Shown: positions 32,070 to 49,235 of the stretch, piece by piece
How the letters are laid out: each line of letters opens with the position of its first letter
Numbering within the stretch: the stretch's first letter is position 1
Origin: Alphaproteobacteria bacterium
Lineage (GTDB): Bacteria > Pseudomonadota > Alphaproteobacteria > SP197
Direction of reading: 5' to 3'
Assembly: GCA_965228895.1 (NCBI GenBank)
Contig: OZ245842.1
Span: forward strand, 3,328,001-3,392,000
DNA: 64,000 bases
Program-made: the position numbers and the translations under genes
Notes under the pieces: generated by a model
What the model was told of the DNA's origin: nothing
The model's input: only the letters and a program-made list of their open reading frames with translations
Databases searched by the model: none

Positions 32070-33194
32070 TCAGCCGGCGTTCGCCGGCGCCTCGATACCC
32101 ATCCGCTCCAGCAGATGACAGGCGAACTCCCAGTTCGTCGCTTCCCAGGGATGCAGCGGCGCGCGATTGCCGGTGCCTGCGGCAAGTCCGCGCTGGACGC
32201 CTTCGATGATCACCTTGTCTTCGGCCATGAACGCATGCACCGCATCGTTGGCCTCGGCGATTGTGGTTTGGTCGACCGGCTCGTTGCCTTCCGGATAAAG
32301 CGCCAGCCACATGTGCGCACGCAGGCTTTGCGGCCCGTCTGGCATGACGGAGAGCCATAGCGCCGACCCGCCGTCGATAGCGAAGGCAAGGGCGGGATAG
32401 ATGCAGATCAAATGGCTCGCCGTCACGTCTTCCTCCGCGACACCGCGCCGGCGCGCCGGTTCGACCGCATAAGATGCGTTGGTGCGCATCAGGTGATGGT
32501 TGAACCCCGGCCCGCCCTTGAGGTTCTCGATCGTCGCCGTCGGTGTCGTGTCTTCCAGCGTCGCCTTGTGGACACGGAAGACGTGGTAACTCTCGCAGAA
32601 GTTCTCGACCAGGACCTTCCAGTTGCACGCAAAGCTCATGTCCTCGCGCAGAATGACCTCGTGTTTGTCGAGCTCCAGTGGCGCGATGCGCGGCTCGAGA
32701 TCGGCCAGCGCCGGCGCCAGAGGTTCAGCGTTCTCGTCCAGATTGACGAAGACGAGTCCCTGCCAGATCTCCAGCCCGAGCCGCTTCAAGCCGATATCGC
32801 CCAGCGCGGCGCGGTCCATATGGGGCGCGCCCATCAGTTTGCCGGTCAGGTCATAGGACCAGGCGTGATAGGGACAGGAAAAGACGCTCGTGTTGCCCGA
32901 TCCCGATGCAATGACCGCCGAGCGATGGGCGCAGACGTTGGAGAACGCACGCACCTCGCCATCGCGCCCGCGCGCGACCAGCACCGGCTGGCCGGCCAGA
33001 TCGAAGGTCAGATAGTCGCCGGCGTTCTTGAGCTCCGAGACATGGCCGACCACGATCCAACCGCTGGCAAAGACAGTCTCGCGCTCCAGCTTCGCCATCG
33101 CCTCGCTGGTATAGGCTTCTGGCGGCAGAGCAACGCGATCACCATGTGTCCGGCGCGCGTCGGCCCACGCGCTGAGTGTGGTTTCGATTGACAT
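32070..33194 (-). CDS. Rieske non-heme iron oxygenase alpha subunit (choline monooxygenase/CntA-like group)
   Basis: CAHR..CPYHAW Rieske motif; NWK..ENFCESYH..VH; ED..IIEGVQRG. Confidence 0.9.
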   Translation of the reverse strand: MSIETTLSAWADARRTHGDRVALPPEAYTSEAMAKLERETVFASGWIVVGHVSELKNAGDYLTFDLAGQPVLVARGRDGEVRAFSNVCAHRSAVIASGSGNTSVFSCPYHAWSYDLTGKLMGAPHMDRAALGDIGLKRLGLEIWQGLVFVNLDENAEPLAPALADLEPRIAPLELDKHEVILREDMSFACNWKVLVENFCESYHVFRVHKATLEDTTPTATIENLKGGPGFNHHLMRTNASYAVEPARRRGVAEEDVTASHLICIYPALAFAIDGGSALWLSVMPDGPQSLRAHMWLALYPEGNEPVDQTTIAEANDAVHAFMAEDKVIIEGVQRGLAAGTGNRAPLHPWEATNWEFACHLLERMGIEAPANAG

Positions 33195-33206: not shown

Positions 33207-33512
33207 TCACGCGTCCCTGGCGGCAAGCACGGCTTTGATCAGGTCCTCCGGCACGTCGTCGGGAACTGGCGCGTTCTGCTCATCAAAGGCGCGCTTCGCG
33301 ACCTCGATCGTTCGGCGATAGGCGGCGAGGTAATCGCGGCATTCCCGGCACACTTTCAGGTGCAACTCGAAAACGAATCGCTGCCGGTTGGGAAGCTCGC
33401 CCTCCAGATAGGCCAGAATGAAATCTTCGAACTCCCGGCACGTGATCATCAATGGCATGTGGTTCAGCATCATGCCGTGCAACCACTTCATGGGACGTAA
33501 CCCGTCAGCCAT
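33207..33512 (-). CDS. Zinc-finger (zf-HC2/ZAS) anti-sigma factor
   Basis: ITCREF..YLEGEL..FELHLKVCRECRDY; GGAGG RBS before ATG 33512. Confidence 0.85.
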   Translation of the reverse strand: MADGLRPMKWLHGMMLNHMPLMITCREFEDFILAYLEGELPNRQRFVFELHLKVCRECRDYLAAYRRTIEVAKRAFDEQNAPVPDDVPEDLIKAVLAARDA

Positions 33513-33556
33513 CAGCACCTCCCTGCCGGCTGGCGCACGATCCGGCCCATGACATT

Positions 33557-33609: not shown

Positions 33610-34242
33610 TCACAGCTCTCCCTTCAGAACCGGCTCCAACAGCTTCTTCAGCGCCGAGCGGCCACGATGCAGACGCACCTTCACGTTCGCCTCGCTGATG
33701 CCAAGTCCCTCAGCCACTTCGCTTGTCGACAACTCCTCGATATCGCGCAGCTTCAGAACCACCCGGTAGTTTTCCGGCAGCTCATCGATCATGCGGTGGA
33801 CGAGATCGCGCCGGTCCTTTTGGTCGTAAATTTCGTCCGGCGTCGCCAAGGCCGACCAGGAGCCTTCGATACGGCAAGCGTTCTCGTCGAACGACGGCAA
33901 CCAGTCGTCGATCGGCACGTCGGTAATGTTGCGACGTGACCGCAGTTTCATTAGCGCCTGGTTGACGGTGATCCGGTGCAGCCATGTCTTGAGGCTGGAG
34001 CGTTCTTCGAAACCACCGATCTTGGCGAGCGCGTTGATCAACGCCTCTTGCGCACAATCCTCGGCCAGCGACCGCTCGCCCAGGATGCGTTGGGCGGCCG
34101 CGATCATGGCACCGGCATGGGTACGCACCAGAATTTCGGCCGCCGACGCCTCGCCCGCCTTCAACGCGGTCACCAGCGACGCCTCGTCAATCGAAGCTTT
34201 GGTCATCGACCTCGATCTATGGTCGAGCCCCTCGTCCATCAC
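33610..34242 (-). CDS. ECF sigma-70 factor (start uncertain, 34242 or 34206)
   Basis: AEDCAQE..FEERSSLKTWLHRI and LPENYR..LRDIEELS..VKVRLHRGR. Confidence 0.92.
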   Translation of the reverse strand: MMDEGLDHRSRSMTKASIDEASLVTALKAGEASAAEILVRTHAGAMIAAAQRILGERSLAEDCAQEALINALAKIGGFEERSSLKTWLHRITVNQALMKLRSRRNITDVPIDDWLPSFDENACRIEGSWSALATPDEIYDQKDRRDLVHRMIDELPENYRVVLKLRDIEELSTSEVAEGLGISEANVKVRLHRGRSALKKLLEPVLKGEL

Positions 34243-34365: not shown

Positions 34366-34773
34366 GTGCGTGAGGACTGGCGAAGGGCCGCGATTGACGG
34401 CGATGCCGACACGATCGAACGTCTGCTGGCCGAAGGTATCGATGTCGAAGGTCTGGATCACTATGCCCAGACCGCTCTGATGTTGGCCGCGCGACACGGC
34501 CATGGTTCGGTGGTCGGCTTGCTGCTGGCCGCAGGCGCCGATAAGGATGTCACCGCCAAGTACAAGCTCAGCGCACTCATGCTGGCGGTCGTTAATCGCC
34601 ATCAGAGTGTCGCCAGGCAGTTGGTCGATGCCGGTGCCAATACGCGGTTGCGCAGCAGCGGCGAGACCGGGTTCTCCGGCCAGACCGCCGCGGAAATGGC
34701 CACGCAAGGTGGCCTTCACGAACTCGCCGCCTACATCGCAGCGGCCGATAAAGGCGCCGCAACGGACAGATGA
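34366..34773 (+). CDS. Ankyrin-repeat protein
   Basis: TALMLAA..GH..VGLLLAAGAD repeats. Confidence 0.88.
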   Translation: MREDWRRAAIDGDADTIERLLAEGIDVEGLDHYAQTALMLAARHGHGSVVGLLLAAGADKDVTAKYKLSALMLAVVNRHQSVARQLVDAGANTRLRSSGETGFSGQTAAEMATQGGLHELAAYIAAADKGAATDR

Positions 34774-34793: not shown

Positions 34794-34820
34794 CGTAACC
34801 AAACCCTCAATCGGCGCATC
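34794..34820 (+). promoter_or_regulatory. Candidate ECF promoter for the antiporter/Rieske operon
   Basis: CGTAAC-N16-GCATC, with the same core and spacing as 33557-33583. Confidence 0.5.
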
Positions 34821-34888
34821 GGACACCCATCTGTTGGTGATTGGGTTCCCCGCAAGCGCCGGGGGTTTGGAAGGGGGCTTGTGTTCGC

Positions 34889-36142
34889 ATGACGGTCGGT
34901 TTGCTCGTGGTAATGCTGGTTACCGCTGCCTTCACCATGGTGGCGCAACGGCTGTCGACCACGGTGATCACCGCACCCATGGTGTTCCTGGCGCTGGGTT
35001 ACCTGGCGTCGCTGACGGGCTTGCTGCCTCACCAGGAGGTCGAGGTGGCCTTGCATCTGGTCGCCGAGATCGCGCTGATCATTCTGTTGTTCCTGGACGC
35101 CGCCCAGATGGACGTGATGGCGTTGCGCCGGCGCCATGTGTGGCCGACGCGCATGCTGGCGATCGGCCTGCCGCTCACCATCGTACTCGGCACGCTGGCG
35201 GCCCTGCCCTTCCTCGACGGCTGGCCGCTGGTCGGCGTGGCGCTTGTGGCCGCCATTCTGGCGCCGACCGATGCGGCGCTCGGCCAGGCGGTCGTCACCA
35301 ACCCGCTGGTTCCCGACCGCGTGCGCCGTGCACTGACCGTCGAAAGCGGCCTCAACGACGGCCTGGCGCTGCCCGCCGTTCTGCTCTTCGCCAGCCTGGC
35401 CGCCGAGGTCATGGATAGCGAACGGACCAACTGGCTGGTGTTCGGCGCTCAACAGCTGATCCTCGGACCCATCGCGGGCCTTATCGTCGGTTTCGCCGGT
35501 GCCAAGCTCCTGCTCTATGCCAAGGATCGCCATTTAACGTCCACCACCTACGAAGGCATCGGCGCGCTCGCCATGGCGTTTGCCTGTTATCTGGCGGCCG
35601 ACGCGGTCGGCGGCAACGGCTTCATCGCCGCCTTTGCAGGCGGCCTGACCTTCGGCGCGATCGTCGAGGGACGCTGCAAGTTCGTCTATGAGTTCACCGA
35701 GAGCGAAGGCCAGATGCTGGCCTGGGCGGCCTTTTTCCTGCTCGGCCTGGCGCTGGTGCCCGAGGCGATCCAGCACCTCACGTGGTCAAGCCTGGCGATC
35801 ATCTTGATCAGCCTGTTCGTCGTGCGCCCTGTCGCTATCTGGCTGTCGCTGATCGGTACCAACGCCGCGCCCATTACCCGCCTTTTCTTCGGCTGGTTCG
35901 GGCCGCGCGGCCTGGCGACGGCGCTCTTCGCGCTGCTGATCCTGGAACAGATCACCGACGAGCTTTCCGCGCCCGTACTGGCGCTCGCGATCAATGCTGT
36001 GTGGATCAGCGCGCTGCTGCACGGCCTTAGCGCCATGCCGGCGGCCAAACGCTACGCCAAGGTCGTCGCGGCGATGGGGCCGTGCGCGGAGACGCAAGCT
36101 ATCGACGGCTCCGCCAAACCGCTTGTCACGCGAGACCATTAA
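34889..36142 (+). CDS. Cation:proton antiporter (CPA1/NhaP-like)
   Basis: LAPTDAALG, ESGLNDG and GWFGPRG motifs; many TM helices. Confidence 0.92.
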   Translation: MTVGLLVVMLVTAAFTMVAQRLSTTVITAPMVFLALGYLASLTGLLPHQEVEVALHLVAEIALIILLFLDAAQMDVMALRRRHVWPTRMLAIGLPLTIVLGTLAALPFLDGWPLVGVALVAAILAPTDAALGQAVVTNPLVPDRVRRALTVESGLNDGLALPAVLLFASLAAEVMDSERTNWLVFGAQQLILGPIAGLIVGFAGAKLLLYAKDRHLTSTTYEGIGALAMAFACYLAADAVGGNGFIAAFAGGLTFGAIVEGRCKFVYEFTESEGQMLAWAAFFLLGLALVPEAIQHLTWSSLAIILISLFVVRPVAIWLSLIGTNAAPITRLFFGWFGPRGLATALFALLILEQITDELSAPVLALAINAVWISALLHGLSAMPAAKRYAKVVAAMGPCAETQAIDGSAKPLVTRDH

Positions 36143-36177
36143 CCGAAGACCACAACGTTCCTGTCTGGGAGAAGTTC

Positions 36178-37812
36178 ATGAACAAAACAAGTGTCGCCAA
36201 ACTCGACGACCTCAAAGACCGCAAGCCGACCTATGCCCTGGTCGGCGAAGTCGACCTTGTCGTCGTGCGTTTCGGCGAGGAAGTCTCCGTCTTCTATGGC
36301 CGCTGCCTGCATCGCGGTGCCTTGATGGCCGACGGTTTTGTCAGTGGCGACAACTTGATCTGCGGCGTCCACTACTGGGACTACCGGTTGGACTCCGGCG
36401 TCAGCGAATACGCCAACGACGAGAAGCTGCCGAAGTTCTCTTCGTGGATCGAAGACGGCGAGGTCCTGGTCGATGCCGACGAGATCGCCACCTGGGCGCT
36501 CGACAATCCGCAACCGTTCAACCGCGACGCCTACTTGGGCCTTTATGCCGACACCAGCCACGGCACGCCGGAAGAACCCTATAACGGCCTGATCCAGCAA
36601 TACGCCAAGGACGCGCTGACCAAAACCGGCCACCATGGTCGCGTCGAAGCCATGGGCGTGCCGCGCGACGACCTGCCGACCTGGGACGACATTCAGATCT
36701 TGACGGCGCAGCTCCACAAGGCGCCGCTGCTCGACGACCACGACGTCGGCACCGACGTGGTCATCGGCCCGCGCGCGCAGAAACCGCTGCGCCTGAAGAT
36801 CCCGCTTTTTGTCTCCGACATGAGCTTCGGCGCACTGTCCGAACCCGCCAAGATCGCACTCGCGCGCGGCGCGGAGATGGCGGGAACCGGCATCTGTTCG
36901 GGCGAAGGCGGCATGCTGCCGGAAGAACAGCAGAACAACTCCCGCTACTTCTATGAACTCGCATCAGCGCGCTTCGGTTTCGCCTGGGAGAAGCTGCAGA
37001 ACGTGCAGGCGTTCCACTTCAAAGGCGGCCAGGGTGCGAAGACCGGCACCGGCGGCCACCTGCCCGGCCCCAAGGTCAAGGGCAAGATCGCCGAGGTACG
37101 TGGTCTCGACGAAGGCCAGCCCGCCGTTTCACCGCCGCGTTTCCCGGAGTGGACGGAGCCACACCAGATCCGCGACTTCGCCGATGAGGTGCGCGACCGC
37201 ACCGGCGGCATTCCGATCGGCTACAAGCTCTCGGCCCAGCACATCGAAAAGGATATCGACGCCGCGCTCGAAGTCGGCGTTGACTATATCATCCTGGACG
37301 GGCGCGGCGGCGGCACCGGTGCCGCCCCCATCATCTTCCGCGACAACATCTCGGTGCCGACGATCCCGGCGCTCGCCCGCGCACGCCGTCACCTCGACCG
37401 GTCCGGCCAGAAGGACATCACGCTGGTCATCACCGGCGGTCTGCGCAAGCCAGCGGATTTCGTCAAAGCGCTCGCCATGGGCGCCGACGCCGTTGCGGTC
37501 GCCAACTCAGCCATGCAGGCGATCGGCTGCATCGCCATGCGCGCGTGCCACACCAACAACTGCCCGGTCGGCATCGCAACGCAGAAACCGCATCTGGTGT
37601 CGCGCCTGGTGGTCGAGAAGTCCGCCGTGCAGTTGAAGAACTTCTTCGATGCGTCGGTCGAGCTCATGCAGGTCATGGCGCGCGCCTGCGGCCACGATCA
37701 TCTCTCAGAGTTCACCATCGACGACCTGACCACCTGGAAATCCGACATGGCGGCGCTCTCCGGCGTCGCCTTCGGCGGTGTCGGCCCGGCCGACGACCGC
37801 CATGCGCAATGA
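36178..37812 (+). CDS. Rieske [2Fe-2S] domain fused to FMN-binding glutamate-synthase-family domain
   Basis: CLHRG..CGVHYW; MSFGALS, SGEGG, QGAKTGTGGHLPG, DGRGGGTGAAP; CIAMRACHTNNCP ([3Fe-4S]-type). Confidence 0.9.
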   Translation: MNKTSVAKLDDLKDRKPTYALVGEVDLVVVRFGEEVSVFYGRCLHRGALMADGFVSGDNLICGVHYWDYRLDSGVSEYANDEKLPKFSSWIEDGEVLVDADEIATWALDNPQPFNRDAYLGLYADTSHGTPEEPYNGLIQQYAKDALTKTGHHGRVEAMGVPRDDLPTWDDIQILTAQLHKAPLLDDHDVGTDVVIGPRAQKPLRLKIPLFVSDMSFGALSEPAKIALARGAEMAGTGICSGEGGMLPEEQQNNSRYFYELASARFGFAWEKLQNVQAFHFKGGQGAKTGTGGHLPGPKVKGKIAEVRGLDEGQPAVSPPRFPEWTEPHQIRDFADEVRDRTGGIPIGYKLSAQHIEKDIDAALEVGVDYIILDGRGGGTGAAPIIFRDNISVPTIPALARARRHLDRSGQKDITLVITGGLRKPADFVKALAMGADAVAVANSAMQAIGCIAMRACHTNNCPVGIATQKPHLVSRLVVEKSAVQLKNFFDASVELMQVMARACGHDHLSEFTIDDLTTWKSDMAALSGVAFGGVGPADDRHAQ

Positions 37813-37822
37813 GGGGACGATC

Positions 37823-39799
37823 ATGAACGCCGAAAACCTCGACTGGATTGCCGTCGGCCATGTCGACGATCTGCCGGAAGGCCGAGTCAAGACGGTCACC
37901 GCACGCACCGTCTCGATCTGCCTCTCCCACTTCGACGGCCAGTGGGCCGCCATGGACAACCGCTGCCCGCACCAGGGCGGACCGCTCGGCGAAGGCTCGA
38001 TCGAAAAAGGCGCCGAAGGCCAGTGCTGGATCCGCTGCCCCTGGCACGGCTGGGACTTCGATCCCCTGACCGGCGCACCGCCCGGCGGCCATGAGGACAC
38101 CGGCCAGAAACTCTTCCCCGTCGACATCCGCGACGGCAAGATCTTCGTCGGCATGGAGCCCGAGCCGCCGCATGAACGCACGGCGACCGACGTCATGGCC
38201 GAGACCATGGTCAACTGGGGCGTCAAACGCGTCTTCGGCATGGTCGGCCACTCCAATCTGGGCCTTGCTGACGCCATCCGCCGTCGTGTCATCGACGGCG
38301 ACGTCTCCTATATCGGCATCCGCCACGAAGGCGCCGCTGCCTTCGCGGCTTCCGCCTATGGCAAGTTGACCGGCAAACCTGCCGCGTGCTTGACCATCGC
38401 CGGTCCCGGCGCGACGAACCTGTTGACCGGCCTGTGGGACGCCAAGGTCGATCGCTCGCCGGTGTTGGCGCTGACCGGTCAGGTGCAGACTCAGGTGTTC
38501 GGCCCGGGCGCGTTTCAGGACATCGACCTGCGCTCGGCCTTCGACGCCGTCACCCGTTTCTCGCAGCCGGTGCTCAGCACGTCGAAGCATGCGGAACTGA
38601 TGTCGCTGGCGTGCAAAAACGCCATCGTCGAGCGCGACGTCGCCCACCTGATCTTTCCCGACGACATGCAGACCATGCCCAGCGACGCGCCGGCAGGCGG
38701 GCCGGAAGGGCGGACCGGCGGTTCGGTGGTCGTGCCCGAAGACGCGGATCTTGAGAAAGCCGCGCGGATGATCAACGACGCCAAGCGGCCGGTTATCGTC
38801 ATGGGTCACGGCGCGGTCGCTGCGCGCGATCATGTCATCGCCCTTGCCGAACGCATCGGCGCGCCGGTCATGACCACATTCAAGGGCAAGGGCCTGATCG
38901 CCGACAGCCATCCCAACGCTGCCGGCGTGCTCGGCCGCTCCGGCACGCCGATCGCCAGCTGGTTCATGAATGAGGCCGATCTCTTGATTGCACTCGGTAC
39001 GTCGTTCTCCAACCACACGGGCATCACTGACTACAAACAGATCATCCAGGTCGACTTCGAGCGTATGCAGCTCGGCAAGTTTCACCCGGTAACCCTGCCG
39101 ATCTGGGGCGAGATCGCCGCCTTCTGCGACGCCGTCTCTCCGCGCATCGCCGGCAGCCGCGACGCGATCGACCAGATCGGCGAGCTCGACGAACGTTGGC
39201 GCATTTGGCGCGAGGAAAAGGCGACGCGGCTCGGCGAGAACCGCGGCCAGGGCATCCATTCAGCCGCCCTCTTCAAGACGCTGACGGAACTCTGTCCTGA
39301 TGACGCGATCATCCCGGTCGACGTCGGTAACAATACCTATTCGTTCGGCCGCTACTTCGAAACGAAGGGTCAGCGCGTCCTGATGTCCGGTTATCTCGGC
39401 TCCATCGGTTTCGGCTTTCCCGCCGCCATGGGCGCGTGGGCGGCGACCCAGGACTTCCCCGTGTACGCCGGGCGCAAGGTCATCTCGATCTCCGGCGACG
39501 GCGGGTTTGGCCAGTACGCCATGGAGTTCAACACCGCCGTCAAATACAACATGGACATCACCCACATCCTTTTGAACAACGCCGAGCTAGGCAAGATCTC
39601 GAAAGAGCAGCGCGCCGGTGAGTGGGAAGTCTGGGAAACCAACCTGCACAACCCGCCGTTCTCGACCTATGCCCGTCTGTGCGGCGGTCATGGCGTCAAG
39701 GTCAGCAAAACCGAAGACCTTCATGACGCCATTGCCGAGGCCATCGCCCACGAGGGCCCCGCGCTGGTCGAGGTCATGACCGACGCGGAACTTGTCTAA
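37823..39799 (+). CDS. Rieske [2Fe-2S] domain fused to ThDP-dependent pyruvate-oxidase/ALS-like enzyme
   Basis: CPHQG..CPWHGW; RHEGAAAF, GPGATN and GDGGF..NN ThDP motifs. Confidence 0.9.
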   Translation: MNAENLDWIAVGHVDDLPEGRVKTVTARTVSICLSHFDGQWAAMDNRCPHQGGPLGEGSIEKGAEGQCWIRCPWHGWDFDPLTGAPPGGHEDTGQKLFPVDIRDGKIFVGMEPEPPHERTATDVMAETMVNWGVKRVFGMVGHSNLGLADAIRRRVIDGDVSYIGIRHEGAAAFAASAYGKLTGKPAACLTIAGPGATNLLTGLWDAKVDRSPVLALTGQVQTQVFGPGAFQDIDLRSAFDAVTRFSQPVLSTSKHAELMSLACKNAIVERDVAHLIFPDDMQTMPSDAPAGGPEGRTGGSVVVPEDADLEKAARMINDAKRPVIVMGHGAVAARDHVIALAERIGAPVMTTFKGKGLIADSHPNAAGVLGRSGTPIASWFMNEADLLIALGTSFSNHTGITDYKQIIQVDFERMQLGKFHPVTLPIWGEIAAFCDAVSPRIAGSRDAIDQIGELDERWRIWREEKATRLGENRGQGIHSAALFKTLTELCPDDAIIPVDVGNNTYSFGRYFETKGQRVLMSGYLGSIGFGFPAAMGAWAATQDFPVYAGRKVISISGDGGFGQYAMEFNTAVKYNMDITHILLNNAELGKISKEQRAGEWEVWETNLHNPPFSTYARLCGGHGVKVSKTEDLHDAIAEAIAHEGPALVEVMTDAELV

Positions 39800-39833
39800 G
39801 GCGCGGCGATCCGACACCTAGAAGGAGACCACC

Positions 39834-40685
39834 ATGGCTGATACCAGCCCGCTTACCTCATGCCCGCCCGATGCCTTGGTCGACACGCGTCACATGACCC
39901 ATCAGGCGATGCAACTGCTCAGCAAGGCGGCGCTTGCCAACCTGGAACCGGTCGACGATTACAGCCACACCAACATGGGTTGGGATATCAAGCACGGCGC
40001 GTTTTTGACGCAACCGATCACGACAGCCGGCGGCGACCTCTATGTCGGTCTGGTCTTCGCCAGTTTGACGCTTACGATCGTGCGCGGCGGCGCCATCACC
40101 GCGCAGCTTGATCTGAACGGCATCTCCGACAACGCGGCCGGTCAGTGGCTCGATGCCCAGCTTGCCGAAACCGGCCTCAAACCGGCATCGGCCATGACGC
40201 TCTTCTATGACCTGCCGGCCGAGGTTACCGGCATCACCACCTATTCAAGTGCGGGGCTTGGACCCTGCCTCGTCACCCTCGGACACTGGTTCGCCTTTGC
40301 CGACGGGCTGCTCTCCACGTTCGCCAACGCCAACGCCGCTCTCAATCCAGGACCCAGCCCGGTGCGCTGCTGGCCCCATCATTTCGATATCGCGACTTAT
40401 GTCAGTCTCGAGGAAGGCGACTTCGAAACCGCCAAGGGTATCGGCGTCGGCCTGTCACCCGGCGACGGCAGTTACGCGCAGCCCTATTTCTATGTCACGC
40501 CCTTCCCCGCGCCCGACCTCGCCGCCCTGCCGCCTGCGCCGGCCCCCGGCCACTGGCACAGCGAAGGCTTCGTCGGCGCCATCGCGACCGGCGAAGAACT
40601 CCTCACCCTCGACGACATTGCGTCCGGCGCCGCCGCCTTCGTCGACCAGGCGTTCGCCATCGGCCGTGAGAAACTTGGGGTCTAG
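39834..40685 (+). CDS. DUF5996-like protein
   Basis: PVRCWPHHFDIA and GLSPGD..QPYFYVTPFP motifs. Confidence 0.7.
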   Translation: MADTSPLTSCPPDALVDTRHMTHQAMQLLSKAALANLEPVDDYSHTNMGWDIKHGAFLTQPITTAGGDLYVGLVFASLTLTIVRGGAITAQLDLNGISDNAAGQWLDAQLAETGLKPASAMTLFYDLPAEVTGITTYSSAGLGPCLVTLGHWFAFADGLLSTFANANAALNPGPSPVRCWPHHFDIATYVSLEEGDFETAKGIGVGLSPGDGSYAQPYFYVTPFPAPDLAALPPAPAPGHWHSEGFVGAIATGEELLTLDDIASGAAAFVDQAFAIGREKLGV

Positions 40686-40690
40686 ATCCG

Positions 40691-41374
40691 ATGGCCGCCG
40701 CGCTCACCATCGCCGTCATCTTCATGGTCTCGTTCACCGTCGTGCGGATCGCCGCCGTTGCCATGCGGCTGACTGGCCTGCCGGAAACGGTCGCACGCCT
40801 GCAGTGTCTCTCGGCGCTGACCGGCACCGGTTTCACGACCAGCGAGTCGGAGATGATCGTCAACTATCCGGTCCGCCGGCGCATTCTCGGCCTGCTCATG
40901 GTCACCGGCAATCTGGGGCTGGCCTCGGTCGCCGCGACCCTCATCGTCTCGCTGGTCGACACGGAACCGCGCGCCGGCGCCATCGCCTGGCAGGCCGCAA
41001 TGATGGCGATCGCCGTCGCCATCGTCGTCACGGTCATGTCGCGCGCCATCGTCGACCGCGCCATGTGCGGGCTGATCGGTAAGATCCTGTTGCGCACGAC
41101 GACGCTCGGCAAACGCCACTATCACCGTGTGTTGCAGGTCGATACCGGCTACAGCGTCACCGAGCACCAGTATCGCGGCGCGCGGACGCTATCGCTCACA
41201 GACCTGCCCGCCCCGTTTCACGACCTGCAGCTTCTGGCGAAACGTGGAGAACGTGAACACCTCGGCGAAGACATCGCCGATGACGCCATGATCATGCCTG
41301 GCGATATCCTGGTTTGTTACGGTCACGATGATGTTCATGAACGCTTCGCCGAAGAATTTTTCAATCCGTCATAG
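40691..41374 (+). CDS. Membrane protein with K+-channel-like segment and RCK_C/TrkA-C-like tail
   Basis: ARLQCLSALTGTGFTTSESE..NYPVRRRI; C-terminal I.PGDILVCYG. Confidence 0.72.
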   Translation: MAAALTIAVIFMVSFTVVRIAAVAMRLTGLPETVARLQCLSALTGTGFTTSESEMIVNYPVRRRILGLLMVTGNLGLASVAATLIVSLVDTEPRAGAIAWQAAMMAIAVAIVVTVMSRAIVDRAMCGLIGKILLRTTTLGKRHYHRVLQVDTGYSVTEHQYRGARTLSLTDLPAPFHDLQLLAKRGEREHLGEDIADDAMIMPGDILVCYGHDDVHERFAEEFFNPS

Positions 41375-41476: not shown

Positions 41477-42052
41477 ATGACCCACGACGCGGGCGCGTCA
41501 TCGACAGGGGCTGACTTCTGGCAACCCTATCTCGAAGCGGACGAGCGGCTACTTTGGCAAGGCCGGCCTGCTGGCGGCGTCCGTCTGGACGAGCGGCTTC
41601 GGCGCCGGCTGTTTTTCGGCATCCTGTTCATCGGCATCTTTGTCTACCTGATCTTCGGCGAACAAATCACCGGCGCGCCCTCGCCCAGCAGCTTTCCGCC
41701 AGGCGCCGGCATCGCCGTAATCGTTCTCGGCATCCTGTGGCTCGCCGTACCGGTCATCTCGGACGCCGTCACGCGCGCGCGCACCCGTTATGCGCTCACC
41801 AACAAACGCGCGCTGATCGCCCGGGGCGGTTCGGGCCACCGCATCAAGAGCTACGCCATCGACAGCCGCACCGAGATCGACTACCGGCCCAGCAACCTCG
41901 CCGCCATAAACTTCGCCCAACGCCGCGAGAGCGTGATGGAGACAAGTGGTACGACACAGGGGCGTGGCTTCGTCGGCGTCGGCTTTCGTTACCTGACCGA
42001 CGGCGAAAAGGTCTATGACCTCATGACCAAGGTCCAGCGCGGCGAGGTATAG
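41477..42052 (+). CDS. Membrane protein with PH-like C-terminal domain
   Basis: ERLLWQGRP, 2 TM helices, RYALTNKRALI. Confidence 0.7.
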   Translation: MTHDAGASSTGADFWQPYLEADERLLWQGRPAGGVRLDERLRRRLFFGILFIGIFVYLIFGEQITGAPSPSSFPPGAGIAVIVLGILWLAVPVISDAVTRARTRYALTNKRALIARGGSGHRIKSYAIDSRTEIDYRPSNLAAINFAQRRESVMETSGTTQGRGFVGVGFRYLTDGEKVYDLMTKVQRGEV

Positions 42053-43183: not shown

Positions 43184-45484
43184 CTATTCGTCGCCCCAAC
43201 CCAGGACGTTGCGCATGATGCTCCATCGTGGTGTGGAGGCGGCATCGGCTTTGCCGTCGATCCAGTGGTCGACCATACGGTCGTGAAAGCCATCGGTCCG
43301 CTGTAAACGCATCCAATAGTTTAGGAACTGGGTTAGCTGGTCGGCGTTTCCAGGCAGCAGATAGGCGATCAGAAACGGGCTGCCCAGATTGTTCGGTACC
43401 ACGGCCGTGTAGTCGGTCCGCCGCGATGTCCACGCCTTCGCCTGCTCCAATGTCCAGATCGCCGCGTCGACATCGGGATGGTCAGGCAGTTCATCATAGC
43501 TCTTCACCACCTTGACATCGGCGTTGGGCATCAGACGTTTGACCAGCGGCACCAGGACGGGATCGTCGAAGGCGCCGATGACAAGGTCCTGCTGCGCAAG
43601 AATGGCGTCGCGGGAGAGGAAACTGTTGACTTCGTCGGCCCGTACGATCAGCGCCAGGGGACTCTGAAGATAAGGTTCGGAGATGGAGAGATGCTGCAGT
43701 CGGCTATCCGTGACGTAGATGCCCGACACCGCCATATCGAAGCGACCGTCCGCCAAGTCGTCGGCCAGACTCTGCCATTCGAACGGGATCAGCCGCAGTT
43801 TGACGTTCAGGTCCTGTGCGAGTTTGTAGACATAGGCAATGTCGTATCCAACCAACTCACCTCGCTCGTTCGTGTAGCTGAACGGAATCACATTGGGGTT
43901 GTAGCCAACCCTGATCTCGCTGGTGCTCTGAATTCGGGCAAGCGCGCCCATGGTGGAATCGGCCACCGTGTCGGCCGCGCTGCCAGCCGCCGTGTCGGCC
44001 GCGCTGTCGACCTCCGCATCGCCCCCTGTATCGGCCGTGGTGTCGGTCCCCGCTTGTGATGTCGTAGCTGCCGCGTCGGTCTGGCTTGCATCACTGGGTT
44101 TTTCGATCACCACCGTCACATGTTCGGTCAACTCTGGCGCAAGCTGAAAGGCCAGATAGGACGGCGTCTCCTCATCGACCACCGCGTCCTGGATGAACCG
44201 CCCCGCCGTGGTGATAATGGCGATAGCGGCAATGCTGACGCCCAGCGACCACATCAGACGCGACACGCGCAATTTGAGGTGACCGTAATAGTGCAAGGTG
44301 ACCAAAAAGGTAACGAAGGTGAACCCCATCACCGACGCGACCACCTGTCCATAACGGGTGATGGTCATCATACCGACATAGAGTCCCGTGGCATCGGCGG
44401 GGAACTGCAGCCAACTGACCAGGAAGTCCACCGCGTCAATTGACGAGCTGGGCGAACCAATTCCCGACAACAGGCTGACGAAGGGCAGCGACAGCTCCTG
44501 ACTGTCACTCAACGGAACGCGGTAGTAATAGGCGCCGAACAGAACGAACAGCCAGATGAAGAAGTTGCCGAGTTGCGCCAGCGGATAGCTCACCGCCAGC
44601 GTGGTCTTGATGATCTCGCCGCGGTTCTCATCCTTGATGCCCTGTTGCTCGGCGAGCTTTTCGGCCGCCTGCTGGATGAAAGGCAGTGCCGCCACCGATA
44701 GGCTGGTGACCACGGCGATAACCAAGCCATTCTGGACGTCGCGGATAACCTCGCGCGTGGTGACCGGACAGACTGCTGAGATCAGCGACGGCAGGATCCA
44801 AAAGGCCAAGATCACCGTGCCCGCGATCATCACGAGCAGATAAAGCGAGAGATCCGCCAGGTCGGTCGGGTCCAGCGTGCCGGCGGTCTTGGCGAACAGT
44901 GCACAGACGCCGAACGGCGCAAGCAGAACGACCCAGCGCCAAATTGTCACGCTCGCGCCGCGGATCAGATCCAACACATCGAGAAACGTTTCCTTGTTGT
45001 CGATCCGTTGGATGGCGATGCCATAGACAATCGAGAAAACTACGACGGCCGGAACGTAGTTGCGCGCCAGCGCCAGGAACGGGTTGGACGGGATCAGATG
45101 ATCCAGCAGTCCGGGGCCTTCCTGCGGCGCGTTGGCGTTGATGAAGCTGGGCGGCGGCACCTCTGGAATCGCGATCGACAGCAGGAAGATGATCAGGAAC
45201 GTCGTGCCCCAGACGACCAGGTAGACGAGCCAGCTGCAACGGAAGAGCCGCCACGCCGTGTCTGGCGAAAGCCGCCCCAGGCCATGCAGCAGCGAGCAGA
45301 TGATGTAGGGGAAAACCACCACCTCCATCAGCTTCACATACGTCTGGCCGACGGGTTGCAGCACCTTCGCCTGGTCGCCGAAAAACAGCCCGATCGCAAC
45401 GCCGGCAAGGGCGCCGATCAGGACCCAAAGCGGCAGCCTGCGGGCATAAGAAGATGTTTCTGACGTCACGCTCGCCTCATCCAA
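43184..45484 (-). CDS. DAACS (dicarboxylate/amino acid:cation) symporter fused to a C-terminal family-3 solute-binding domain
   Basis: N-terminal DAACS helices (IPSNPF..LAPFGV); Ala/Thr/Asp linker; RIQSTSEIRVGY..PFSY..GYDI..FDMAVSG. Confidence 0.85.
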   Translation of the reverse strand: MDEASVTSETSSYARRLPLWVLIGALAGVAIGLFFGDQAKVLQPVGQTYVKLMEVVVFPYIICSLLHGLGRLSPDTAWRLFRCSWLVYLVVWGTTFLIIFLLSIAIPEVPPPSFINANAPQEGPGLLDHLIPSNPFLALARNYVPAVVVFSIVYGIAIQRIDNKETFLDVLDLIRGASVTIWRWVVLLAPFGVCALFAKTAGTLDPTDLADLSLYLLVMIAGTVILAFWILPSLISAVCPVTTREVIRDVQNGLVIAVVTSLSVAALPFIQQAAEKLAEQQGIKDENRGEIIKTTLAVSYPLAQLGNFFIWLFVLFGAYYYRVPLSDSQELSLPFVSLLSGIGSPSSSIDAVDFLVSWLQFPADATGLYVGMMTITRYGQVVASVMGFTFVTFLVTLHYYGHLKLRVSRLMWSLGVSIAAIAIITTAGRFIQDAVVDEETPSYLAFQLAPELTEHVTVVIEKPSDASQTDAAATTSQAGTDTTADTGGDAEVDSAADTAAGSAADTVADSTMGALARIQSTSEIRVGYNPNVIPFSYTNERGELVGYDIAYVYKLAQDLNVKLRLIPFEWQSLADDLADGRFDMAVSGIYVTDSRLQHLSISEPYLQSPLALIVRADEVNSFLSRDAILAQQDLVIGAFDDPVLVPLVKRLMPNADVKVVKSYDELPDHPDVDAAIWTLEQAKAWTSRRTDYTAVVPNNLGSPFLIAYLLPGNADQLTQFLNYWMRLQRTDGFHDRMVDHWIDGKADAASTPRWSIMRNVLGWGDE

Positions 45485-45994: not shown

Positions 45995-47599
45995 ATGGCT
46001 CAGAATAATCGCTATGACTACATCATCGTCGGCGCCGGATCCGCCGGTTGCGTCTTGGCCAACCGACTGAGCGAGGACGCGAGCGCCAGTGTGCTGATCG
46101 TCGAGGCCGGCGGCAGCGATAAGAACATGCTGATCCAGATGCCGGGGGCCGCCGCCATGGCGGCGCGCGACACGCGTTTCAGCTGGGGTTATGTCGGCGA
46201 GCCGGAGCCGCACCTGAACGGGCGCGGGATTCTGGAGGCGCGCGGGCGGGTGCTCGGCGGTTCGTCGTCGATCAACGGCCTGGTCGCCAACCGGGGCAAC
46301 ACGCGCGACTACGACGGCTGGGCCGCCGGCGGCCTGAACGCCTGGTCCTATGCCCACTGCCTGCCCTATTTCAAGAAGATGGAGACCTTCGATCGCGGCG
46401 CCAACGATTGGCGCGGCGGCGATGGCCCCCAGCACATCGAATCATGCCCGGCCCAGGGCCCGCTCGACCAGGCATTCCTCGCCGCCGGGCAAGAAGCCGG
46501 CTACGCCTTCACCCAGGACCAGAACGGCGAACACCACGAAGGCTTCCACGTCGCCCAGAGCTTCACTCGCAACGGCAAACGCTGGAGCACCGCGGACGGT
46601 TACCTGCGTCCGGCACTGCAGCGCCCGAACCTCACCTTGATGAGTGGCGCGCTTGCCCATCGCGTTGTCTTCGATGGCAACCGCGCGGTCGGTGTGGAGA
46701 TCGAACACGGCGGTAGCGTCGAACGCCATGAGGCCGAGCGTGAGGTGATCCTGGCGGGCGGCGCGATCAACTCGCCGCAGCTTCTTTTGCTCTCGGGCGT
46801 CGGCGATCCCGCGCACCTCGCCGAACACGATATTGCGGTCAACGCCGACGTACCGGCGGTTGGCCGGCACCTTGAAGACCATCTGATCGTGCCGATCCAG
46901 TATTCGACACCGCCGGGCGTGTCGCCGGCCGGCAAGTTCAACGGCCTCGGACGCTACCGCATCGGTGCACAATGGCTTTTCTTCAAGTCCGGCCTCGGCG
47001 CGTCGAATTTTTGCGAGACCGGCTGTTTCTTCAAGAGTTCCGATGACGCCGCCTATGCGGACATCCAGCATGAGTTCTATCCGGTCTGCGCCCAGATGGG
47101 CGAGCCGGACGCCAACGTCGCGGAAGGCTTCATGTTCTCCATGGGCATCATGCGCCCGCAAAGTCAGGGGCGCGTCTGGCTCAAATCCGCCGACCCGCGC
47201 GCCCATCCCGCGATCCTCTTCAACTATCTGGATACCGAAGCCGACCGGCGCGTGATGATCAATGGCCTCAAACGCACCCGCGAGATGGCCGCCCAGTCGG
47301 CGTTCGACCCCGTGCGCACGGCGGAACTCTCACCGGGCCCCGACGTGCAGAGCGATGCGGAGATCCTGGCCTGGCTGGCTGCCGAAGGCTCGACCGAATA
47401 CCACCCATGCTCGACCTGCCGCATGGGCACCGGCGACGACAGCGTCACCAACGGCGACGGTCAGGTGCACGGAACCGAAGCGCTGCGCGTGATCGATGCC
47501 TCGATCATGCCCAGCAACGTCACCGCCAACCTGAACGCACCGGTCATCATGATCGCCGAAAAACTGGCCGACGCCATCCGCGGCAGGCCGCCGCTTTAA
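45995..47599 (+). CDS. GMC oxidoreductase, choline dehydrogenase-like
   Basis: YDYIIVGAGSAG, LGGSSSING, YHPCSTCRMG and ANLNAP motifs. Confidence 0.9.
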   Translation: MAQNNRYDYIIVGAGSAGCVLANRLSEDASASVLIVEAGGSDKNMLIQMPGAAAMAARDTRFSWGYVGEPEPHLNGRGILEARGRVLGGSSSINGLVANRGNTRDYDGWAAGGLNAWSYAHCLPYFKKMETFDRGANDWRGGDGPQHIESCPAQGPLDQAFLAAGQEAGYAFTQDQNGEHHEGFHVAQSFTRNGKRWSTADGYLRPALQRPNLTLMSGALAHRVVFDGNRAVGVEIEHGGSVERHEAEREVILAGGAINSPQLLLLSGVGDPAHLAEHDIAVNADVPAVGRHLEDHLIVPIQYSTPPGVSPAGKFNGLGRYRIGAQWLFFKSGLGASNFCETGCFFKSSDDAAYADIQHEFYPVCAQMGEPDANVAEGFMFSMGIMRPQSQGRVWLKSADPRAHPAILFNYLDTEADRRVMINGLKRTREMAAQSAFDPVRTAELSPGPDVQSDAEILAWLAAEGSTEYHPCSTCRMGTGDDSVTNGDGQVHGTEALRVIDASIMPSNVTANLNAPVIMIAEKLADAIRGRPPL

Positions 47600-48744
47600 G
47601 CGGTAATCTTGGTGAAGCGGCGGCGTTGGTAACCGACGACCACGGGCAGATAACCGCCTTCTGTGAAAGCCACGTCCAGTTCGCGCGAGCCGGTGTCAAC
47701 ATGCAGCACGGGCGTTTCGGCAAGCTTGGCCGGGGTCGCGACGACGATCAGGTTGTCGCGGCCGATCCGCTCAAGGATCGGCGGACTGAGCTGCAGATTG
47801 CCGCGACCGAGCACAAAACCCTGCGCGCCGATCGGGCTCAACACCAGACAGCAGGCGGCATAGCGATCAAGCAGCGGCAGGATGTCCGCCTCGGCGACGT
47901 CCTTGGCCACCAGCGCACCGCCGGCGACCGCGTCGATGCCCAGCATGGTCTTGTCGATACGCAGCCGGTCGCCGATCGCCTTGACCGTACTACCCGCACC
48001 CAGCAGGTAGAGCGTGTCGGGGTTCTCGTTCATCGCTTCGACAATGCCGCGTGCAATGGCCTCCTTGATGTCGGCTTCGTCTTCGTGGGCAATCAGCATC
48101 TTGGCCGACTGGGTCAGCGTGGGCTCATAGGGTGTCGTCGCGGCGTCGTATAGCTTCACCGCCCATTCACCGCGTCGGTATCGAGTTTCGTCCAGATCCA
48201 GCACCTCGACCGTCGTCGTCTTGAGCGCGCCGGACAGAAAGCCGGCAACGATCTCGGCCGTGTGTGCCGGGCTGGTGCCGAACACGCCGGAATACATCTT
48301 GACGCCCGACGGGATGCCCAGGATCGGCACGGTCTGCGACGTGACGGCGCAGATGTCGCGCGCGGTGCCGTCACCGCCGCAAAACAGGATGAGGTCGGCA
48401 TTGGCATCCATGAAACGGCGTGCTGCGGCTTGCGTGTCGTCGCGCGATGTCGCCCCACCGGGATCGTAGACCACCTCGATGTTTTGAAACCCCGCTTCCT
48501 CCAGGGCCGCCGCGCCCATCGCGCCGGCGCAGGTCAGCCAGTGCGGTTCGCCACGCCGGGACGACACGGCAAGACGGCGGCGCAGTTCCCGTAACGTTTC
48601 CTCCGCCCGGCCCGGCGCAACCGGCGACGCGCCACGCCGGCGCGCCTCCTCGGCCACGTCATCGGTACCTTTCAAGCCGACGCGCCCGCCCATGCCGGCG
48701 ATCGGGTTGATCACAAAACCGATGCGCCGTCCGGTTTCGGTCAC
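47596..48744 (-). CDS. ATP-NAD/AcoX kinase family protein
   Basis: INPIAGMGG, GGDGTARD and GIPSGVKMYSG motifs. Confidence 0.85.
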   Translation of the reverse strand: MTETGRRIGFVINPIAGMGGRVGLKGTDDVAEEARRRGASPVAPGRAEETLRELRRRLAVSSRRGEPHWLTCAGAMGAAALEEAGFQNIEVVYDPGGATSRDDTQAAARRFMDANADLILFCGGDGTARDICAVTSQTVPILGIPSGVKMYSGVFGTSPAHTAEIVAGFLSGALKTTTVEVLDLDETRYRRGEWAVKLYDAATTPYEPTLTQSAKMLIAHEDEADIKEAIARGIVEAMNENPDTLYLLGAGSTVKAIGDRLRIDKTMLGIDAVAGGALVAKDVAEADILPLLDRYAACCLVLSPIGAQGFVLGRGNLQLSPPILERIGRDNLIVVATPAKLAETPVLHVDTGSRELDVAFTEGGYLPVVVGYQRRRFTKITA

Positions 48745-48753
48745 GGGACGTGT

Positions 48754-49164
48754 CTACAGCCGGTCGAGTTCGATATCCTCGCAGGACATGCCGAACGCCG
48801 CCAGCCCGCCTTCGATGTAATCCGACAGAAGCGGTATGCCGATCAGGTAGGCCGCGGTGTGTTCGGTATGCTGCTGCTCGGCCAGCGCCAGGGCGTCGTC
48901 CCAGTCTTCGGCGTCGTGATCGCCGCGTCCGACCCAGGTCAGCGCGACCAGCGCACACTGTTCGTCCCAGTTCAGCCCGTCGATGGCGTCGCGCAATTCC
49001 TCGAACGTCGGATCGTCCTCATAGGCTTCCAGCACCTGAACGACGCCGTCGTCGGTTGCGTTGGAGCCGTAGTCCGGCTCGACGACGCCTTCCTGCGCGT
49101 CAAACTCGCGCGCTCTGAGCATGATGTAGCAGACCTTGGTGCGATCGATACTGGGCGTGGCCAT
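48754..49164 (-). CDS. DUF3775-like protein
   Basis: LVALTWVGRGD..W..YLIGIPLLSDYIEGGL. Confidence 0.82.
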   Translation of the reverse strand: MATPSIDRTKVCYIMLRAREFDAQEGVVEPDYGSNATDDGVVQVLEAYEDDPTFEELRDAIDGLNWDEQCALVALTWVGRGDHDAEDWDDALALAEQQHTEHTAAYLIGIPLLSDYIEGGLAAFGMSCEDIELDRL

Positions 49165-49221
49165 GGCCATCTCCTGCGATTTCCTTTGTCCCGAACGTGA
49201 CGCCAAAGGCGCGGCCTCGCC

Positions 49222-49235
49222 TTGACGCAAATCAA
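49222..49235. promoter_or_regulatory. FNR/FixK-like box
   Basis: TTGAC-N4-ATCAA (9 of 10 consensus positions) between divergent genes. Confidence 0.6.

Follow-up and report, generated by a model that had tools for sequence, protein, structure and literature searches.

A five-gene block encoding two Rieske-fused flavoenzymes with a cation/proton exchanger, and a divergent sigma factor, in an alphaproteobacterial genome

Enzymes of the PoxB type work as oxidases, and the C-terminal peptide of PoxB brings the enzyme to the membrane and its quinone and gates quinone reduction. The physiological direction of glutamate synthase (GltS) is reductive. Kef and Kht antiporters, for their part, use oxidoreductase or RCK accessory subunits. 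A fusion of a CDGSH domain to the flavin mononucleotide (FMN) domain of glutamate synthase has been described as 'type 5 CISD' (Lin et al. 2011), and the parts of the relevant papers available to us (PMC3174974, PMC5859297) give its architecture only and assign it no function. Here we analyse a stretch of 64,000 nucleotides from an alphaproteobacterial genome (contig OZ245842.1, positions 3,328,001 to 3,392,000 of the forward strand; hereafter the window), in which five co-directional open reading frames (ORFs) occupy positions 34889-41374 of the + strand and two of the encoded enzymes, one with a GltS-like core and one resembling PoxB, each carry a Rieske domain. We tentatively propose that the block is a single transcription unit driven by an extracytoplasmic function (ECF) sigma factor and its anti-sigma factor, and that its core would be a pair of flavoenzymes passing electrons through their Rieske domains. 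The function is predicted from sequence, and we hold this reading to be possible rather than probable.

The genes of the block are the following:

34889-36142, + strand: CPA1-family cation/proton exchanger, 417 aa; ATG preceded by GAAGGGGG; membrane domain only, no RCK tail.
36175-37812, + strand: Rieske domain joined to a glutamate-synthase-type FMN/[3Fe-4S] core (Rieske-GltS), 545 aa; ATG start, with homologues aligning from residue 2.
37823-39799, + strand: Rieske domain joined to a PoxB-like thiamine diphosphate (ThDP) enzyme (Rieske-ThDP), 658 aa; ATG after GAGGGG, matching the gap reported earlier.
39834-40685, + strand: probable divergent DUF5996-family protein, 283 aa, soluble; ATG start.
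40691-41374, + strand: small membrane protein with a probable C-terminal RCK_C/TrkA_C-fold domain, 227 aa; ATG start.

The GC content at third codon positions of these frames (0.78-0.84) is the codon bias of genuine genes. With the likeliest starts, the intergenic gaps are 32, 10, 34 and 5 bp, and no terminator-like site was seen in a weak scan of the + strand inside the block. A preliminary description, made from the letters of the window and its ORFs, had reported five tightly spaced co-directional genes, an N-terminal Rieske domain in both consecutive enzymes, and a synthase-like protein with FMN and Fe-S motifs that lacks an amidotransferase domain. All three observations stand, the second through matches to PF00355 in each enzyme and the third through Pfam matches and alignments. 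The limits it gave to the block hold for the five genes as placed, but an ankyrin-repeat gene and a promoter candidate lie upstream of its start. The 5.5-Mb genome contains a single copy each of the Rieske-GltS and the Rieske-ThDP fusion.

The second gene product matches the Pfam families Rieske (4.8e-11) and, over residues 231-537 of the long ORF, Glu_synthase (1.1e-88). Its Pfam matches include neither an amidotransferase nor a central or GXGXG domain, and its length of 545 residues compares with ~1500 in GltS. Its score against the GltS equivalog NF008730 is 128.2 bits, which misses the cut-off of 1047, and it aligns to the FMN domain of GltS in PDB entries 7MFM, 1LLW and 1EA0. Both the Rieske ligands C44, H46, C63 and H66 (CLH...CGVH) and the [3Fe-4S] triad C452, C458 and C463 (C-x5-C-x4-C) are invariant in 36 aligned homologues, and the triad aligns to that of GltS. 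Comparison with the ferredoxin-dependent enzyme (Fd-GltS) of Synechocystis showed that E903, Q969, K972 and R992 have conserved counterparts in this protein, while Q978 is replaced by His; we take these five residues (Synechocystis numbering) to be the catalytic 2-oxoglutarate-site residues of GltS.

A homologue search with this protein gave at least 8000 significant candidates, with the best 120 listed being 84-100% identical, and among species-representative genomes 589 of 600 pattern matches encode a relative. The best 80 of these 589 relatives are 63-86% identical to the protein of the window, and are found in Alpha-, Beta- and Gammaproteobacteria, Poribacteria, Gemmatimonadota, Bacteroidota, Verrucomicrobiota and Ignavibacteriota. 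At 50% clustering the Rieske-GltS family forms approximately one cluster. In the clusters nearest to it this core, at 56-67% identity, is preceded by CDGSH, by Fer4_19 followed by CDGSH, or by no module at all. A relative of 38% identity combines CDGSH, Fer4_19 and Rieske on one protein, and more distant cores are fused to a C-terminal rubrerythrin (in a 46% relative) or to rubredoxin and CCG domains. Since CDGSH, Fer4_19 and Rieske swap on the same core, the N-terminal module appears to be an exchangeable one-electron adaptor. Among the representative proteins P0122-P0152, electron-transfer modules are swapped throughout the family. In five genomes (G195, G110, G303, G355 and G053) one stop codon was flagged inside the GltS-like match; these matches reach query residues 538-542, beyond the typical homologue length of 536 aa, and the flag probably reflects an overrun of the gene's own stop.

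The third gene product contains a Rieske domain (6.4e-17), with the ligands CPH...CPWH in the translation, and the TPP_enzyme_N, _M and _C domains, the middle one of which is also shared by relatives free of flavin adenine dinucleotide (FAD). Its best PDB match is Escherichia coli PoxB (3.8e-70, PoxB residues 4-528 of 572), and it carries the activating Glu (RHE) and the Mg/ThDP motif GDGGF...NN. The protein ends 4 residues past the PoxB match, so that the C-terminal membrane-binding region of PoxB (529-572) is absent. Scores of 391.8 bits against the pyruvate oxidase model NF006377 and 318.7 bits against the ubiquinone-dependent pyruvate dehydrogenase model NF006591 miss the respective cut-offs of 742 and 792. 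Because the tail of PoxB is missing and a Rieske domain has been added, the latter would replace the quinone route of PoxB.

We then searched 80 related loci, the best of the 589, by tblastn with the proteins of the window, using flanks of up to 10 kb; at least 3 kb upstream and at least 5 kb downstream were present in 61 of them. In 40 of the 80 loci a Rieske-ThDP gene was found no more than 10 kb from the GltS-like gene, and in 32 it follows that gene immediately, on the same strand. The co-conservation on which the preliminary description had staked its case beforehand is thus observed. The CPA1 exchanger was present in 31 loci, in 30 of them as the gene immediately preceding the GltS-like one, and a DUF5996-like gene in 13; both are real recurrent partners. 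Clustering of the flanking ORFs added two further recurrent genes, each in 25 of the 80 loci, which encode a dihaem membrane protein with a Rieske domain of its own (dihaem-Rieske) and a partner protein. As the DUF5996-like gene and the dihaem pair exclude each other (no locus of the 80 has both), two arrangements can be told apart, namely exchanger - GltS - ThDP - dihaem-Rieske - partner and, as in this window, a divergent ECF/anti-sigma pair followed by exchanger - GltS - ThDP - DUF5996 - RCK_C. The DUF5996-like gene adjoins the GltS-like gene in Verrucomicrobiota and Gemmatimonadota loci also, with a partial match in an Ignavibacteriota locus. A quick tree of the GltS-like proteins, built on 74 of 81 rows (L014, L023, L026, L029, L061, L079 and L088 were dropped for a short match or a stop), required at least 4-5 changes per arrangement class on supported branches, and the gene links were therefore not inherited as one block.

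Two genes next to the block were tried as further members of the set and rejected, as neither the ankyrin gene (34366-34773) nor a downstream ORF of 191 aa (41477-42052) had a tblastn match in the 80 loci. Individual loci devoid of the partner genes showed other neighbours of the GltS-like gene. These were a free-standing CDGSH + Fer4_19 protein (L024:4134-4880), an EgtD-type histidine methyltransferase (L062:8986-9948), an AhpD-like CMD protein with a cytochrome b561 (L067:5324-8247) and an Hsp20 (L079:9403-9876). In a Bacteroidales locus an EgtD-type methyltransferase gene immediately precedes the GltS-like gene. CitMHS transporters were seen in L024 and L048, and one in L024 has TrkA_C domains.

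The distribution of the genes was profiled in 401 genomes of the window's class, including its own. A full-length Rieske-GltS was found in 13 genomes, with the core only (residues ~129-538) in 7 more, and a Rieske-ThDP in 17. Both enzymes were present in 11 genomes, against a chance expectation of ~0.6; these counts are descriptive, since related genomes are not independent and significance is overstated. The two genes lie at most 5 kb apart in 6 of the 11 genomes; in the remaining 5 they are separated by 46-530 kb or sit on different contigs. Such co-occurrence, surviving unlinking, is what a functional module predicts. The enzymes do not always come as a pair, for 6 genomes have the ThDP enzyme only and 2 the GltS-like enzyme only, one of the latter being just 67% complete. 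The exchanger clade (38-100% identity) occurs in 21 of the 401 genomes and neighbours the GltS-like gene in 6; of the 19 genomes that encode at least one of the enzymes 11 have it, compared with 10 of the 382 others. The DUF5996-like gene was profiled in a later sample of 386 genomes, which overlaps the 401 where genomes could be matched. It was found in 12, of which 9 have Rieske-GltS, 2 have Rieske-ThDP only and 1 (G240) has neither, so that 11 of the 12 encode one of the enzymes. A direct search of the remaining four GltS genomes gave no DUF5996-like match.

The dihaem-Rieske protein, of 355 aa, consists of a Ferric_reduct dihaem membrane domain with weak similarity to MsrQ and, at the C-terminus, a Rieske domain. 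Electron transport by ferric-reductase domains is directed outward. The gene that follows encodes the partner protein, of 253 aa, which has an N-terminal hydrophobic helix and belongs to no Pfam family. In the genome of the window (G000) the pair lies elsewhere:

C1:2865618-2867458, - strand: dihaem-Rieske gene and the gene for its partner, ~500 kb from the window and unlinked to it.

The dihaem-Rieske gene occurs in 19 of the 401 genomes, including 8 of the 13 with Rieske-GltS and 9 of the 17 with Rieske-ThDP. The chain had been proposed to be self-contained, and this did not hold, because a third Rieske partner that adjoins the pair in 25 of 80 loci is encoded ~500 kb away here. At C1:2865618-2868900 (locus L094) the dihaem pair stands behind two small hydrophobic-peptide ORFs; since these precede it on the same strand, the sequence suggests a membrane module organised as one unit of four genes.

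The region upstream of the block contains a candidate regulatory switch and the ankyrin gene:

33207-33518, - strand: zinc-type (ZAS) anti-sigma factor, ~103 aa or shorter; zf-HC2, no hydrophobic segment.
33610-34242, - strand: ECF sigma factor, divergent from the operon; Sigma70_r2 and Sigma70_r4_2.
34366-34773, + strand: ankyrin-repeat protein, 135 aa; Pfam Ank_2 5.8e-19; between the ECF gene and the promoter candidate.
34795-34825, + strand: ECF-type promoter candidate; GTAACC (-35), 15-nt spacer, GCATCGGACA (-10 region).

The sigma factor scores 102.8 bits against the NCBIfam model sigma70-ECF (cut-off 42.9 bits) and has sigma70 regions 2 and 4 in Pfam. The anti-sigma factor matches zf-HC2 (8.9e-10) with the pattern C-x25-H-x3-C-x2-C, and its NCBIfam matches, RsrA and ChrR among them, are weak and all under the cut-off. 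In 8 of the 80 loci a homologue of the ECF gene stands upstream of the exchanger in divergent orientation, and an anti-sigma homologue is likewise found in 8, in every case with the ECF gene. The promoter candidate is located ~65-95 bp upstream of the exchanger ATG, after the ankyrin gene, and the element TGTAACC-N15/16-(G/T)CATCTGACA precedes the exchanger in the window and in the 8 loci with a divergent ECF-like gene, in a weaker form in L070 and L080. A strict regular expression applied upstream of the first gene matched in 5 of 80 loci, all ECF-bearing, and missed two TCATC variants and L080. When a position weight matrix (PWM) built from nine sites, the window's own included, was run over the 5.5-Mb genome, the site in the window came top at 24.0 bits and the runner-up reached 18.4, with no convincing gene downstream of the latter. 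Across the whole genome the strict motif matched at 8 sites and a control pattern at 4, and neither the motif scans nor the PWM found a copy at the dihaem-Rieske operon. On this sequence evidence we are apparently dealing with a sigma/anti-sigma switch that has a one-operon regulon, and the link to stress suggested earlier thereby gains a dedicated ECF sigma/zinc anti-sigma pair and its promoter candidate.

A GbcA-like Rieske oxygenase alpha subunit (32070-33194; Rieske + Ring_hydroxyl_A) is also encoded on the - strand, its gene starting 12 bp beyond that of the anti-sigma factor. It scores 138 bits against the glycine-betaine monooxygenase model, under the cut-off, and may be co-transcribed with the sigma/anti-sigma pair. 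GbcA-like matches in the related loci are partial (23-33%), with the exception of L085, where a match of 31% identity and 88% coverage lies on the other strand.

The exchanger matches Na_H_Exchanger (PF00999, 1.1e-34), and the models closest to it, those of NhaP2-type K+/H+ exchangers, give 120 bits and cut-offs of 309-471 are missed. Its translation shows the motifs PTD (APTDA) and ND (LNDG); TD and ND motifs are functional signatures of CPA1 exchangers. The product of the fifth gene has no Pfam match as a whole protein, as either half or in two of its homologues, even at an E-value of 10, and its 711 homologues are all unnamed, with 1 of the 120 listed carrying PF02080. An AlphaFold2 model (predicted local distance difference test score, pLDDT, 81) shows a three-helix membrane part around an invariant SALTGTGFTT loop, followed by a C-terminal domain. 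Foldseek relates this domain to the RCK_C/TrkA_C domains of KtrA, TrkA, the MthK RCK and KhtT (7AGV) with a probability of ~1.0, at an E-value of only ~1e-3, and the superposition on 3jxo_B (TMt 0.69, root-mean-square deviation 2.3) covers 77 columns. Its Atlas neighbours likewise carry TrkA_C. The gene is present in 9 of the 80 loci. As it is found only alongside the exchanger (9 of 9 loci), the simplest reading of the model is that its product would be a regulatory subunit of the exchanger; that it is instead a small channel is a possibility we keep beside this one. Of the ion transporters previously announced, therefore, the exchanger stands, and the fifth gene product is not recognisable as a transporter by sequence.

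The fourth gene product scores 22.5 bits against PF19459 (DUF5996), under the gathering threshold of 25 bits. The DUF5996 label it had been given is thus sub-threshold for the protein itself, but many of its 2049 homologues, nearly all of them unnamed, carry PF19459, and for this reason we tentatively place it in a divergent DUF5996 subfamily. Its Atlas neighbours are DUF5996 clusters in which 13-57% of the members carry the family. Eight residues (H23, D42, S44, H182, H183, D185, D211 and H242) are invariant in 41 aligned sequences, and this cluster of His and Asp suggests a metal site. With an AlphaFold2 model of high confidence (pLDDT 94.8), Foldseek found nothing in the PDB at E <= 0.001. 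A wide VIA-align search gave a best Z of 7.2, for the C-terminal domain of T4 MotA, as well as several rows for frataxin/CyaY (Z 6.1-6.6, residues ~146-283); these values are in the range commonly reached by the method, and neither fold is claimed.

Taken together, the reading that we tentatively favour is as follows. The zinc anti-sigma/ECF sigma pair would drive a single transcript of the five genes. The GltS-like core would oxidise a glutamate-type amino acid to a 2-oxoacid and ammonium, with electrons passing from FMN to the [3Fe-4S] cluster and on to the Rieske domain, and the PoxB-like enzyme would oxidatively decarboxylate a 2-oxoacid, possibly the product of the GltS-like enzyme, with electrons passing from ThDP to FAD and to its own Rieske domain. 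Both Rieske domains would then give single electrons to a shared acceptor, for which the likeliest candidate is the dihaem-Rieske protein, an MsrQ-like membrane protein whose gene lies beside that of its partner ~500 kb away. While this chemistry runs, or while the inducing stress lasts, the CPA1 exchanger may keep protons and cations (K+, Na+ or NH4+) in balance; the RCK_C membrane protein would probably regulate it, and the His-rich DUF5996 protein could be an accessory dedicated to the GltS-like enzyme, with a possible part in handling metals or clusters.

Three considerations lead us to favour a dehydrogenase direction for the two enzymes. Enzymes of the PoxB type function as oxidases, and in the third gene product the tail leading to quinone has been replaced; sister cores are fused to CDGSH, rubredoxin-type or rubrerythrin modules; and ferric-reductase domains move electrons outward. 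CDGSH, rubredoxin-type and rubrerythrin modules are fairly high-potential or electron-consuming, whereas GltS is driven by low-potential ferredoxins.

Several observations weigh against this reading. The kept 2-oxoglutarate-site residues fit the reductive direction equally well. No partner gene is found within 10 kb in 25 of the 80 loci, whose neighbours are diverse and, in the 46 of 96 flanking ORFs that were scanned, point to no common pathway. The link to the exchanger was seen only in Alphaproteobacteria among these loci. Neither enzyme is present in 10 of the 19 dihaem-Rieske genomes, and in 5 of the 6 genomes that have the ThDP enzyme alone the GltS-like and the dihaem-Rieske gene are both missing at the thresholds used, so that the Rieske domain on the ThDP side must also serve some other partner. 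The genome counts, as stated, overstate significance through the relatedness of the genomes, and the PWM that ranks the promoter candidate first includes that very site. Finally, the inducing stimulus, a thiol or oxidant signal, is suggested by analogy to the RsrA-type zinc anti-sigmas, which respond to such signals.

A more specific version of the favoured scheme, drawn by analogy, is a stress-induced route independent of pyridine nucleotides. The zinc anti-sigma factor would sense a thiol or oxidant signal, an amino acid would be deaminated and the 2-oxoacid decarboxylated, and four electrons would pass through the Rieske domains and the dihaem protein to a periplasmic client, in a manner resembling repair by MsrPQ. 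An RCK_C-gated CPA1 exchanger would remove the load of ammonium and protons, and the DUF5996 protein would keep the [3Fe-4S] and Rieske centres metallated. In this full form we consider the scheme quite improbable.

The two enzymes could alternatively exchange electrons with each other, as the preliminary description had proposed. Oxidation of pyruvate or another 2-oxoacid by the PoxB-like enzyme would then send electrons from one Rieske domain to the other and through the [3Fe-4S] cluster to FMN, where 2-oxoglutarate would be reductively aminated with free ammonium. The pair would amount to a pyridine-nucleotide-independent glutamate synthase, with the exchanger supplying or balancing NH4+/K+ and protons. 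We judge this chain to be somewhat unlikely, though a serious rival. A Rieske-ThDP gene does accompany Rieske-GltS in 11 of 13 genomes, and in 32 of 80 loci it lies directly downstream, as it does across the 10-bp gap of the window, but no ThDP gene is nearby in the other 40 loci that lack one within the flanks, and 6 of the 17 Rieske-ThDP genomes have no GltS-like gene, with 2 of 13 in the reverse situation. The conserved equivalents of E903, Q969, K972 and R992 and the cluster triad would suit amination, and GltS is by established knowledge ordinarily reductive; the amidotransferase and its ammonia tunnel are, however, absent. A third Rieske membrane protein that co-occurs with the pair, and sister cores fused to CDGSH or rubrerythrin, suggest instead an output of electrons, as in the dehydrogenase reading that we prefer.

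That the enzymes are independent and merely co-regulated is, in our estimation, unlikely. On this account each Rieske domain would be a generic dock for a common reductase or oxidase (e.g., a ferredoxin-NAD(P) reductase), neither electrons nor substrates would be exchanged, and the exchanger, DUF5996 and RCK_C genes would be co-induced stress genes. It accommodates the genomes in which each enzyme occurs alone, the absence of both other Rieske proteins from 5 of 6 ThDP-only genomes, the interchangeable N-terminal Fe-S module of the family, and the repeated reshuffling of arrangements on the quick tree (at least 4-5 changes per class, 74 of 81 rows). Stress-type neighbours (Hsp20, AhpD-like CMD, EgtD-like methyltransferase and MscS) in some of the partner-less loci also fit. 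Yet the co-occurrence of the two enzymes, DUF5996 and the dihaem-Rieske protein persists where the genes are unlinked (the enzyme genes being apart in 5 of 11 genomes), and this is not predicted by co-regulation alone.

Scarcely credible, finally, is the view that an ordinary pyruvate oxidase and an ordinary glutamate synthase are chance neighbours: PoxB/pyruvate oxidase and the GltS large subunit are indeed the best family and PDB matches, but equivalog cut-offs are widely missed on both sides (391.8 vs 742 and 128.2 vs 1047 bits), the amidotransferase, central and GXGXG domains and the PoxB tail are absent, a separate 1570-aa open frame in the genome matches GltS, both enzymes carry a Rieske domain and the pair is co-conserved, so that we rejected both the ordinary identities, which the domain content contradicts, and the chance-neighbour reading of the block, in agreement with the view first taken of the two enzymes.

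Elsewhere in the window, the - strand encodes at 43184-45484 a 766-aa frame with a sodium:dicarboxylate symporter (SDF) and an SBP_bac_3 domain, an unusual fusion of transporter and binding protein, and at 47596-49230 a protein of the NAD-kinase fold (382 aa) followed by a DUF3775 protein.

Our literature search, in which the supplements of the CDGSH papers were outside the scope, found no description of Rieske-GltS, Rieske-ThDP, DUF5996 or the gene set, consistent with the earlier statement that no biochemical description of the combination was known. What is new in the window is the sigma/anti-sigma pair with its promoter candidate, the exchanger/RCK_C pair, the DUF5996 profile and the unlinked membrane partner. 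An identity of 63-86% across phyla is what one would see in a core enzyme, but no assigned function was found in the literature, and the gene set is widespread in marine bacteria. If the enzymes do form an electron couple or a two-step line for amino acids and 2-oxoacids, they would represent an undescribed wiring of flavoenzymes, by way of Rieske plugs fused to them, in marine bacteria of high abundance. The sigma/anti-sigma switch with its promoter candidate, the recurrent exchanger and a DUF5996 subfamily nearly confined to enzyme-bearing genomes provide handles for testing this.

The locus can be compared, part by part, with systems already described. The anti-sigma factor of the ECF16 group is a six-helix membrane protein; the one encoded here is a short soluble zinc-finger protein. 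In the parts of the papers available to us, the ECF16 consensus is given as tGTAACc-N16-CGAA, for sigma factors that respond to H2O2, chromium and HOCl (PMC3420878, PMC3511200, PMC8315932). The promoter candidate has a -35 identical to that of ECF16 (Caulobacter sigmaF, Bradyrhizobium EcfF, Brucella BcrS) and a similar spacing, as far as the available parts go (PMC3420878, PMC3511200). The -10 in the window and related loci is GCATC(T/G)GACA and not CGAA, and because the -10 and the type of anti-sigma factor differ we rejected membership of this sigma factor in ECF16 and have not filed it there.

Like the KefC-KefF and KefB-KefG systems and KhtU-KhtT of Bacillus subtilis, the block encodes an antiporter together with flavoprotein oxidoreductases and a separate protein with a probable RCK_C fold. 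Here, however, the exchanger is of the CPA1 and not the CPA2 family, the RCK_C protein is anchored in the membrane, the oxidoreductases are unrelated to KefF/G, and the relationship is predicted from sequence and fold. With the MsrPQ (YedYZ)/ferric-reductase family the unlinked partner shares a Ferric_reduct dihaem membrane domain that is weakly MsrQ-like. It differs in that a Rieske domain in the dihaem protein takes the place of a flavin reductase or of quinol use, and in that the partner protein, having no Pfam family, is not MsrP.

The third gene product shares three ThDP-enzyme domains, the RHE Glu and the GDG...NN motif with PoxB (PDB 3EY9/3EYA) and with pyruvate oxidases and pyruvate:quinone oxidoreductase (9EV3-9EV6, 1POW), and differs from PoxB in having a Rieske region of ~120 residues at the N-terminus, no membrane-binding tail and scores far under the equivalog cut-offs. 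The second resembles GltB and Fd-GltS in its FMN barrel, its C-x5-C-x4-C triad and four of the five 2-oxoglutarate-site equivalents. Unlike them, it lacks the amidotransferase, central and GXGXG domains, is encoded with no GltD in its vicinity, has His at the position of Q978, and bears a Rieske domain at the N-terminus. Type 5 CDGSH proteins have an FMN/[3Fe-4S] core that is 66-67% identical to that of the second gene product and a small N-terminal [2Fe-2S] module in the same position, this module being CDGSH where the protein of the window has Rieske.

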